Origin: a virus
DNA length: 64,000 bases
UHGV virus genome: UHGV-0116877
Reading direction: 5' to 3' (one strand)
Numbering within the stretch: the first letter of the stretch is position 1; every line of letters begins with the position of its first letter. The position numbers were made by a program, and so were the translations under genes. The notes beneath the pieces were generated by a model that saw nothing but the letters and a program-made list of their open reading frames with translations, ran no database searches and was not told where the DNA came from. Shown in pieces: positions 13,242 through 29,038 of the stretch.

Positions 13242-13318
13242 TGGTTGCGGTTATAGTTACTGCCACTATTGTTTTCCTCTTAATGAGAGAGGCGAGACAC
13301 TTTTTCTCCATGACCGCA
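13242..13318 (-). tRNA. atypical tRNA(CAT) with non-canonical T-loop
   Basis: TGCGGT/ACCGCA acceptor, CCTCT-CTCATTA-AGAGG, T-arm ATAGT-GGCAGTA-ACTAT, CCA end. Confidence 0.65.
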
Positions 13319-13329
13319 ATATAAAGGAG

Positions 13330-13995
13330 TTATTCAAACTCCCAAAGAAACTTATATGCTGTTTTTCTTTTTCCATTACATACATCTAGAATGTGACTTC
13401 TTACTCCACCTGTATAATTTTTCGCGTATCCATTAGAAACCAACCATTTGCCTGCCTCCGCAGCAGAATTAAAACTTCTTAAATAATTACGACTTAAATC
13501 AAACTGTTTAATTTTTTTTGAACTATTCTTCATTTCTATCTGTAGCTTAGTTTCTGGAACGAATACTTCTAAGTCCAATTTCTTGGCTATGTCGCGAATT
13601 AAATCTCTACAACAGCCAATTTTTTCCATAATTTCTTTAGCCGATTGCTTCTCTTTAATCATATCGGCTATTAAATCATAGTCATAAAGAACTTTTCCAT
13701 CTCCACCTAAAGTGGCATTATACCCATCTCCATAAGAGTGATAATATCCTATCCAGTAACACTCTTTTTCAGATAAAAAATCTAATGGGACAATCTCAAT
13801 CATTTCGATAGAAAAATTTTCTTTTCCATACTTCTGAATTGCTCGATAAAGTGGCCTATCTTTTGCCCTTTCCAAAGAACTTTCTTTCAGATGTTCTTTA
13901 AATCTTTCTTCTATCGTTTTTGTCGTTTTGCCTATATAACACTTTCCATTGATGTTATTTGTAATCTTGTAAATAAATCCATTCATTCTACTCAC
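13330..13995 (-). CDS. GIY-YIG homing endonuclease (NUMOD1-type C-terminus)
   Basis: GFIYKITN...YIGKT...R..EH...GYN.T.GG. Confidence 0.92.
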   Translation of the reverse strand: MSRMNGFIYKITNNINGKCYIGKTTKTIEERFKEHLKESSLERAKDRPLYRAIQKYGKENFSIEMIEIVPLDFLSEKECYWIGYYHSYGDGYNATLGGDGKVLYDYDLIADMIKEKQSAKEIMEKIGCCRDLIRDIAKKLDLEVFVPETKLQIEMKNSSKKIKQFDLSRNYLRSFNSAAEAGKWLVSNGYAKNYTGGVRSHILDVCNGKRKTAYKFLWEFE

Positions 13996-14041
13996 CTCTA
14001 ATTATAAGTAGAATTTTGGTTGCGAGAATACAAAATTTTGG

Positions 14042-14099
14042 GTGCGAATTTGTCAAAAGTCCAGAACTCGCCAACGTGGAGGCTTCGCACTTGAGTTCC
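14042..14099 (-). ncRNA. minimal HDV-like (theta) self-cleaving ribozyme
   Basis: P1 GGAACTC/GAGTTCT (G1-U), P2 GTGCGAA/TTCGCAC, P3 GCC/GGC, L3 TCCACGTT, P1.1 CC/GG, J4/2 CAAA; G1 directly follows the tRNA discriminator. Confidence 0.88.
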
Positions 14100-14182
14100 T
14101 TGCGGGTGGTGGATTCGAACCACCGCGTTTCTTATGTGGGAGATAATGACTCTCCTGACCTCGACCTCTAGTCCAACCCGCG
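14100..14182 (-). tRNA. tRNA-fMet-like (CAT), long variable loop, no encoded CCA
   Basis: C1xA72 mismatch, GGAGA-GTCATTA-TCTCC, canonical T-arm. Confidence 0.8.
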
Positions 14183-14584: not shown

Positions 14585-14781
14585 AATTAACACCTAATCC
14601 TTTCACTCATAAAATTTATTTTTTATTTTGAAAGAGGATTTTCCTCTCTTTCACTATATTTATTATACCATACTTTTCGCAGAAAGTCAAGATTAACGAC
14701 TTTTGAATTTTCCGAAGAAATTTTCTTCCTTTCTTAACTTTCTATAATAATTATATCACACTATTTTAAGAAAGTCAATAC

Positions 14782-27422: not shown

Positions 27423-27887
27423 TTAAATTTTGTAAAGAACTACATCATTGTCTTTAAAGATATTACAAATCATTGGATAAACAACTTTATCCCAGTCGCC
27501 GCCACCGCGCCCGCATCCTATTTTATAGGGCATTGCAATAGGCATACGACTCTTTCTTGCTAGTCCCATAAAACACATTTCAAGAGCATCATAGTCTGTA
27601 TATTGTTTATCTCTACCATATCCATCTTGAGCAAACATATTCACGATAATTTTCTTATCTTTCGGAACTGTAACATATTGATTACAACCAAGTAATTCAG
27701 AAGTGTTTTCTTTTACAGTATCACAAATTTTTCTATATTCTTCATAAACAATAGGAAATTTATTCCGAATTGCTCTTGCGGCGCCCGAACCCATAACCCC
27801 TTTGCAATTCACTTGATGCGCAATTATCTGTTCTTTTGCAGAAACAATATTGCCATTAACAATTTTAATCATTATTCTCACTCCCAT
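27423..27887 (-). CDS. macrodomain (Appr-1-p/DarG-like ADP-ribose processing) protein
   Basis: GNI...IAHQVNCKGVMGSGAA..I...IAMPYKIGCGRGGGDW. Confidence 0.92.
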   Translation of the reverse strand: MGVRIMIKIVNGNIVSAKEQIIAHQVNCKGVMGSGAARAIRNKFPIVYEEYRKICDTVKENTSELLGCNQYVTVPKDKKIIVNMFAQDGYGRDKQYTDYDALEMCFMGLARKSRMPIAMPYKIGCGRGGGDWDKVVYPMICNIFKDNDVVLYKI

Positions 27888-27969
27888 TTATTTTATTATA
27901 TCACACTATAAAATAAAAGTCAATAAAAAGAAGCGCCATTTCTGGCGCTTAATTTTTATAAATTTATCT

Positions 27970-28857
27970 TTAATATATTCCCAAAATTTCCTTTACTTTC
28001 TCGTTGCATAGACGATTCAATTCCTTGAAATTGATAGTTGGATTCTTAAAAGCCTTTACGAAATGATAAGACTCTTCTGTAATTAAAGTATGCCAAACAG
28101 TAGACAGAAGTCTCCCGATATGTTTAGACTCCCATACTCCAACTTCATTTTCAATTTTTGCCTTCTCTTTTTGTACGACAGCCTCAGTAATATACTTTTT
28201 AATAATTGCCTGCTCTACCTCATTCAGACCGACTATCTTCGGTTTTGAGGTGCCTTTCTGTTTATGAAATTCACTTCTAACAATTTTTGCCCAGGTCTGG
28301 CGGCCATAGCGATTACGGTATCCGTAATTTTTAATTACAATACCTTCCCCAATTTCGTCTCCCTGCATGAGATAATGATTGCTTTCAAGTAGCTTCATCA
28401 ACTGCTCAGTAGTTGGATTTTCAATCTTATCAAGAGGGTCAATTACAGTAATACCATAGCTCTTGAGAAGAGGAGCAAAAGTTTCATAGGGAAGATAGAC
28501 AAATCCTTCTCCATTTTCTACTGCGACATCGAAGACATACGGCTTTCTCCATGCGTCAACTTCATAATTCTTGATAGTATGAGGTACAAGCCACTCAAAG
28601 AAAATATGGTGTTCCACATGGTCAGCGAGATAGCCGCAAATATTCTCATTTTCAAGAATAGCTTTCGCACATCCAGCGTTGTCATCTTCTGGAGTAATAA
28701 ACCTCTTGCGGCTACCTACAAAGATAGTATTCCCATCTGACCATGCTTGACCGTTGGTTCCATCCAACTTAGGGTAGACATAAACTTCTCCATTCAAAAT
28801 ACCTTCAACCTCAGGAGTGCCAAGTCTTTCGATATGCTGATATCCTTTATACTCCAC
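27970..28857 (-). CDS. ATP-dependent RNA ligase (Rnl2-like)
   Basis: KLDGTN, FFEW, VFD, EGIVIK, AKIV nucleotidyltransferase motifs; GTG start. Confidence 0.85.
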   Translation of the reverse strand: MEYKGYQHIERLGTPEVEGILNGEVYVYPKLDGTNGQAWSDGNTIFVGSRKRFITPEDDNAGCAKAILENENICGYLADHVEHHIFFEWLVPHTIKNYEVDAWRKPYVFDVAVENGEGFVYLPYETFAPLLKSYGITVIDPLDKIENPTTEQLMKLLESNHYLMQGDEIGEGIVIKNYGYRNRYGRQTWAKIVRSEFHKQKGTSKPKIVGLNEVEQAIIKKYITEAVVQKEKAKIENEVGVWESKHIGRLLSTVWHTLITEESYHFVKAFKNPTINFKELNRLCNEKVKEILGIY

Positions 28858-28858
28858 T

Positions 28859-29038
28859 TTATTTTCTCCTTTCAAACAAAATAAGAACAGTTGTTAGAGA
28901 ACGAGAAACCGCCTGTCCGATAGAACAGGTAGACATTTGAACATCAATAAGATTTATTCCGCCCTGTTTAAGAAAATCATTCATTTCTGTCTGAACCATT
29001 TTTGGGTCGCCATGAAAAATCTTCGTCTCCATACTCAT
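28859..29038 (-). CDS. 59-aa hypothetical protein (not in ORF track)
   Basis: AAGGAG RBS and upstream promoter; MSMETKIFHGDPKMVQ... Confidence 0.65.
   Translation of the reverse strand: MSMETKIFHGDPKMVQTEMNDFLKQGGINLIDVQMSTCSIGQAVSRSLTTVLILFERRK

Follow-up and report, generated by a model that had tools for sequence, protein, structure and literature searches.

A minimal HDV-like ribozyme behind a CCA-less phage tRNA lies in a swappable block with a GIY-YIG nuclease gene, probably spread by SegB-like homing

Organisation of the locus

The window, meaning the whole 64 kb stretch of phage DNA analysed, contains tail, endolysin and topoisomerase genes, and partial matches to it among metagenome runs include pig gut and feces (X8, X9). 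Within its tRNA cluster, a tRNA with a CAU anticodon and no encoded CCA (tRNA-A') is followed by a minimal HDV-like ribozyme, a leader, a free-standing GIY-YIG endonuclease gene and a second CAU tRNA (tRNA-B), all on the minus strand (Table 1). The promoters at 14778 and 14690 are the likely source of the precursor transcript, as judged by their match to the sigma-70 consensus; the promoter region contains 9 such matches against 4.7 expected by chance.

The phage reads code 11, in agreement with the first-pass annotation of this DNA. Twelve long frames end in TAG or TGA and the in-frame continuation does not exceed 34 codons in any of them; the endolysin gene itself stops at TAG, and no suppressor is present among the 26 tRNAs. 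CCA is encoded by 24 of the 26 tRNAs detected by ARAGORN, so the earlier observation that most tRNAs carry it and tRNA(CAT) does not was correct. The other exception is tRNA-Ile(TAT) at 12572-12498.

Table 1. Coordinates of the features at the locus and of neighbouring RNA elements
Feature	Coordinates	Strand	Basis or description
Two sigma-70-like promoter matches (11/12), upstream of a 113-aa ORF	14662..14778	minus	consensus match only
tRNA-A', CCA-less CAU tRNA, anticodon 14148-14146	14100..14182	minus	ARAGORN; below the Rfam gathering score
Minimal HDV-like (theta-like) ribozyme, 58 nt	14042..14099	minus	descriptor parse; identical sequence in Supplementary Data 4 of PMC10879173
Ribozyme P1	14099-14093/14069-14063	minus	G1.U wobble and 6 Watson-Crick pairs
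Ribozyme P2	14090-14084/14048-14042	minus	7 Watson-Crick pairs
Ribozyme P3	14083-14081/14072-14070	minus	3 bp
Ribozyme L3	14080-14073	minus	8 nt; its CC pairs with GG 14062-14061 to form P1.1
Nuclease leader	13987..14041	minus	sequence reading; comparison with paralogues
Free-standing GIY-YIG endonuclease gene; likely start ATG 13986, ORF open from GTG 13995	13330..13986	minus	PF01541, E 4e-9; TIGR01453
tRNA-B, second CAU tRNA, with encoded CCA and U37; borders the swappable block on its right-hand side	13242..13318	minus	cloverleaf, z -2.4
RNA module directly behind tRNA-B	13241-13185	minus	
Non-coding stretch behind tRNA-Ile(TAT), about 230 nt	12497-12270	minus	
tRNA-like unit	12266-12209	minus	
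HNH gene	12208-11588		

Fold and register of the ribozyme

The descriptor parse resolves a nested double pseudoknot of P1, P1.1, P2 and P3 with a G1.U wobble, and every HDV element claimed in the first-pass annotation could be located on the minus strand between 14099 and 14042. J1/2 is AA. L4 comprises only 8 nt without a real P4, which corresponds to the reduced P4 of the minimal HDV-like class and to the earlier description of P4 as almost absent. J4/2 reads CAAA, and its first position, C14052, is the putative catalytic C expected for the class. The G1 at 14099 directly abuts the discriminator A at 14100, one base after which the ribozyme had been said to begin; this register places the predicted cleavage site within 5 nt of the tRNA 3' end, as is characteristic of theta ribozymes.

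A descriptor search for HDV-like motifs, proposed as a check in the first-pass annotation, returned this site as the single match across both strands of the 64 kb, unchanged with relaxed settings, and gave 0 matches in 40 block-shuffled windows. Requiring U or G at the catalytic position gave 0 matches in the window; requiring A gave one, probably the same site in another register. No family in an Rfam 15 scan matched the ribozyme. Among five virus records, four carry one ribozyme per genome and the fifth carries none (two of the records, G001 and G003, are apparently the same). An INPHARED phage search yielded no record carrying the ribozyme. In RNA-labelled runs, which were available as contigs, at most 0.21 of the words matched.

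Relationship to published theta ribozymes

The theta and minimal HDV-like ribozymes of gut Caudoviricetes were described by Kienbeck et al. 2024 (PMC10879173). In the accessible text of that study, tRNA-Met, Sup and Leu account for more than 70% of tRNA-linked theta matches, 4.5% of the partner tRNAs encode CCA and 95.5% do not, and the tRNA-theta genomes are recoded in 53% + 6% of cases and not recoded in about 41%. On these figures the combination of a CCA-less Met tRNA with code 11 is the usual case. The phage of the window differs from the recoded theta carriers, and the first-pass annotation had regarded a theta-type ribozyme in such a phage as unexpected; with about 41% of carriers unrecoded, it is not. 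Further likenesses to the published theta ribozymes are the fold and a G1 positioned directly after the discriminator. Cleavage that depended on Mg and was lost with a C-to-U change was reported there for 4/4 related tRNA/ribozyme pairs. Cleavage by the present ribozyme is judged very probable.

The exact 58-mer is contained in Supplementary Data 4 of the same study (row 359), the first-motif list of minimal HDV-like ribozymes, where its L4 string occurs in 9 rows; no tRNA link is recorded for it in the accessible parts of the study. The variant ribozyme of a related locus (L044) is listed there as well, with its L4 string in 4 rows. The 58-mer is in neither of the refined-motif tables (Data 1 and Data 2), and a further difference is that its L3 is one base longer. 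As judged by this absence from both tables, it lies outside the formal theta definition, which is the authors' refined motif, and it was therefore filed as theta-like. It is a catalogued minimal HDV-like ribozyme, predicted to work as theta ribozymes do, that apparently does not fit the strict motif.

Absence from the refined-motif tables would also fit a ribozyme that has decayed or misfolds, with host RNases trimming the tRNA, and so would the 5-nt L3 tail of the element, which occurs 0 times in Data 1 and Data 2. When the precursor is folded without pseudoknots, the tRNA 5' strand pairs with the P2 3' strand of the ribozyme, a competing fold that could slow cleavage according to this model. 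Against decay, every helix is intact and the catalytic C is kept, the J4/2 sequence CAAA occurs 401 times in Data 1, the published tRNA-theta table (PMC10879173), and a P2 pair that is G-C in the window is A-U in L044 and L207, a single compensatory change. Decay is accordingly considered highly improbable.

The CAU tRNAs on either side of the nuclease gene

The initiator tRNA-fMet of bacteria is recognised by its CAU anticodon, C1:A72 mismatch, A11-U24 pair, discriminator A73 and three consecutive G-C pairs in the anticodon stem. The first four features are shared by tRNA-A'. Unlike the initiator, its anticodon stem ends in A-U, G-C and A-U with no run of three G-C pairs, its anticodon loop is G32-U33-CAU-U37-A38, and its variable region is 14 nt long and unpaired. 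The description of this tRNA as "initiator-type" thus stands for C1:A72 and A11-U24 and falls short at the anticodon stem and the G32/U37 loop. The accessible part of an eLife paper on anticodon mutations contained no case resembling the U37 loop. The same anticodon stem-loop, with G32/U37, is found in a published tRNA-Met/theta pair (PMC10879173).

The second CAU tRNA was missed by both ARAGORN and Rfam, and was also overlooked in the first-pass annotation. The CAU-U37-A38 loop is constant in tRNA-B and in the tRNA upstream of the nuclease site across all five allele types described below, and the bodies of these tandem tRNAs differ widely. Such a combination of variable bodies and a constant loop may have arisen as these tRNAs evaded anticodon nucleases or homing nucleases.

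The GIY-YIG nuclease gene and its leader

The nuclease scores 83 bits against TIGR01453 (cut-off 56). The gene is uninterrupted, the motif residues align with those of its paralogues, and Rfam scans found no intron family around it. An intact GIY-YIG domain encoded within a tRNA cluster and outside any intron is also typical of SegB.

The leader of the gene opens with a CCA (14041-14039) directly after the ribozyme, and contains 8 nt that repeat the tRNA tail plus CCA (14024-14017), a TATAAT-like box (14006-14001) and an RBS (13998-13995). A leader with the TATAAT-like box and RBS is common to two ribozyme-less GIY-YIG paralogues in the window, so the nuclease need not depend on the ribozyme cut. 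The earlier suggestion that cleavage generates the 5' end of the nuclease transcript is therefore possible as a description of one route and unnecessary as a requirement. Both ribozyme-less paralogues have a strong hairpin upstream of the leader motif (21200-21144 and about 19650-19600, minus strand), the one before the paralogue behind tRNA-Ser having a z of -5.7.

A copy of 6-8 nt of the upstream tRNA tail plus CCA was found in the leader in 4/5 cases, L165 having none; the frequency in shuffles was 0.0004-0.006, in a test made post hoc after the pattern had been noticed. A duplication of the tRNA tail or target site was sought behind the nuclease gene and none was found.

These features bear on the possibility that tRNA-A' is a non-decoding punctuation mark or decoy, and that the ribozyme is kept to free the nuclease message and set its 5' end. 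The tRNA is below the Rfam threshold and has the unpaired variable region, U37 and lack of three G-C pairs already described; a CCA-bearing CAU tRNA lies just downstream; no CCA-adding enzyme (PF01743) was found in any of five relatives, four of which are complete; and an armless tRNA-like unit precedes the HNH gene in a similar way. On the other side, the L044 allele has a tRNA of normal length with the same loop, the published tRNA-Met/theta pair has the same anticodon stem-loop, and the nuclease leader is shared with paralogues that have no ribozyme. A decoy role is judged improbable.

Occupied and empty alleles among relatives

The CCA-less tRNA, the ribozyme and the GIY-YIG gene form a block that is present or absent between shared flanks, a pattern which the first-pass annotation had not recognised. 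The occupied allele of the window, comprising tRNA-A', ribozyme, leader and GIY-YIG gene, is also found in L001, L002, L137 and L152. A second occupied type, in L044, contains a normal-length CCA-less tRNA with another body and the same loop, the variant ribozyme, and a nuclease 69% identical to that of the window. In the third, L165, the tRNA and ribozyme of the window are unchanged and are followed by a different nuclease of 245 aa, which has about 42% identity to that of the window over the N-terminal part.

The empty alleles of L048 and L045 contain a CCA-encoding tRNA (tRNA-A) and, immediately after it, tRNA-B, with neither ribozyme nor nuclease between the two; in L045 a different GIY-YIG gene lies upstream of the empty site. 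Ribozyme and nuclease are thus jointly present in 3/3 occupied types and jointly absent in 2/2 readable empty types, and the loss of CCA goes together with both in all five. Additional alleles are known as lengths. In contigs of runs X3 and X10, 860 letters stand in place of the 74-75 nt that make up tRNA-A in L048, and run X1 contains an occupied allele together with a short one. The existence of occupied and empty alleles among relatives is a further point in common with SegB; it sets no direction, gain or loss, for the block. The ribozyme itself was known, and the swappable tRNA-ribozyme-nuclease block is what this analysis adds.

Association of ribozymes and nucleases beyond the site

The window and loci L007-L048 and L132-L208 contain 30 distinct tRNA-linked ribozyme contexts, and 12 of them are followed by a GIY-YIG start within 120 nt, a count that rests on about four lineages; for other HDV-like matches the figure is 0/14. 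Four of the 12 are alleles of the present site, and 8/26 contexts, from roughly three lineages, remain without them. For ribozyme-less tRNAs a GIY-YIG start was found within 180 nt of 5/194, a background set from which ARAGORN misses odd tRNAs. One ribozyme-linked nuclease gene outside the site has four in-frame TAG codons, which indicates that the pairing also occurs in apparently recoded phages.

Viewed from the nuclease, an upstream ribozyme is present in only 5/79 loci of its relatives, and 3 of these 5 are the present site. Ribozyme linkage required 4 changes on the nuclease tree (26 rows, with the long branches L045 and L093 left out and L055 counted as ribozyme-linked), and a single clade was rejected (p-AU 0.0009), and with it the descent of ribozyme and nuclease as one joint lineage. 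Of the outside relatives, L052 is placed nearest in the tree, with weak support (90/74), and its nuclease lies behind a CCA-bearing CAU tRNA with no ribozyme. The ribozyme is not a fixed partner of one nuclease, since by sequence the same ribozyme occurs with two different ones.

A rival explanation sees the ribozyme as an ordinary device for trimming tRNA 3' ends, inherited along with the tRNA allele, and holds that GIY-YIG genes land behind tRNA ends in any case. The identical tRNA and ribozyme with two distant nucleases in the window and L165 would fit this account, as would the lack of monophyly of the ribozyme-linked nucleases, the 18/30 tRNA-linked ribozyme contexts without a GIY-YIG gene, and the ribozyme-less nuclease relatives behind tRNA-Ser (21293-21201) and in L052. 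It has also been reported that co-location of segB and tRNA genes is general (PMC13096335, section 10, in the text available). What it leaves poorly explained is the joint presence or absence of ribozyme and nuclease in every allele type of the site, and the excess of nearby GIY-YIG genes at ribozyme contexts elsewhere over ribozyme-less tRNAs. Simple inheritance of a trimming device is regarded as unlikely, to a lesser degree than either a decoy or decay.

The pairing was not found in the literature searched on phage ribozymes with homing endonucleases or in later theta papers. GIY, HNH and homing are each mentioned 0 times in the main text of PMC10879173, and GIY and homing are absent from its readable supplements (those other than the ORF annotations of Data 5 and one scanned PDF).

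Neighbouring and related RNA elements

The RNA module directly behind tRNA-B consists of an ARCAA-loop hairpin, a variable insert and a compact pseudoknot-like core, and has no Rfam match. Its core was found as an exact 20-mer in 41 metagenome stretches and as a 17-mer in 36 viral stretches, some of these being chance matches in coding DNA. A near-identical pattern is present in 7 genome contigs. Most of these occurrences lie just behind phage tRNA genes or between them. One long-range pair covaries, with 37 G-C, 5 A-U and 4 other combinations (n=46).

The non-coding stretch behind the CCA-less tRNA-Ile(TAT) is conserved in four relatives and contains long segments of complementary sequence; it has neither an HDV-like fold nor an Rfam match at E <= 1. 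The tRNA-like unit before the HNH gene has acceptor, D and T arms and no anticodon arm, and in L044 and L048 a tRNA-Asn stands directly in its place.

In L032, L036, L037 and L039, the ribozyme is preceded by just the 3' half of a tRNA-Leu(UAA). At the anticodon this half adjoins a conserved sequence whose last base is G, an arrangement that resembles a group I intron within a phage tRNA. In L184 (about 1840-2600), HDV-like ribozymes stand on both sides of a ROOL RNA, and L176 contains four of them within 2.1 kb, one directly behind a module of the type found behind tRNA-B. These arrangements suggest that HDV-like ribozymes may also trim RNAs other than tRNA.

Proposed maturation and spread

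The reading preferred here is that a 3'-trimming minimal HDV-like ribozyme belongs to a block which replaces a CCA-encoding tRNA and was spread by SegB-like homing, and it is considered probable as a whole. The precursor transcribed from the two promoters would fold its tRNA first. A Mg-dependent cut at 14100/14099, using C14052, would then yield a tRNA with a 2',3'-cyclic phosphate and a product with a 5'-OH, leaving the upstream CAU tRNA ending at its discriminator. Host enzymes would heal the cyclic phosphate and add CCA, the latter because the search for a phage CCA-adding enzyme found none. In PMC10879173 the cyclic phosphate comes up once in supplementary file 3, in a passage on RNA sequencing.

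Two phage genes were considered as healers of the phosphate. The metallophosphoesterase at 9868-9146, a candidate by analogy to CthPnkp (PMC1920235, in the text available), occurs in only 1/5 relatives and is missing from two ribozyme carriers, so it is not required; the PHROG "phosphatase" at 27887-27423 is a macrodomain. An RNA ligase (PF09414, 28875-27970) adjoins this DarG-like macrodomain gene near the tRNA cluster (27423-28875, minus strand), and repair or counter-defence functions are possible for the pair.

For the spread of the block, the nuclease would cut the tRNA genes of phages that have no block, and repair would copy the nuclease together with the flanking tRNA allele and the ribozyme. 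The ribozyme would be a passenger, able to change partners, through which a tRNA could mature despite its altered 3' end. Spread driven by the nuclease appears rather likely, and is less certain than cleavage. In phage T4, SegB promotes its own spread and that of the tRNA genes around it (PMC2330249, in the text available). The present locus resembles that of SegB in T4/T6 in its intron-less GIY-YIG gene among tRNA genes, its presence or absence in relatives and the differing alleles of the neighbouring tRNAs (PMC2330249, PMC13096335). It differs in that SegB has no upstream self-cleaving RNA, the word "ribozyme" occurring 0 times in the accessible text of PMC13096335.

Implications for phage tRNA genes

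A more speculative possibility, held only tentatively, is that theta-type ribozymes act together with tRNA-targeting GIY-YIG nucleases in a form of collaborative homing that involves no intron. The nuclease would target the CCA-encoding 3' end of tRNA genes, and the tail-like copies in the leaders might be its operator or the scar of an insertion. A ribozyme in place of the encoded CCA would make the resident tRNA gene immune while allowing it to mature, and the nuclease would carry the ribozyme to new tRNA isotypes and phages. This would account for the occurrence of the same ribozymes behind many tRNA types, whether or not the phage is recoded.

The ribozyme is ordinary for its class and already listed, and the published refined motif misses tRNA-linked members such as this. 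What the locus offers is a single site at which occupied and empty alleles both occur in nature. With them it can be tested how theta-type ribozymes move between tRNA genes, and whether replacement of CCA allows a tRNA gene to escape or tolerate a homing nuclease. The locus may provide a reason for such ribozymes in phages that is independent of stop-codon recoding.
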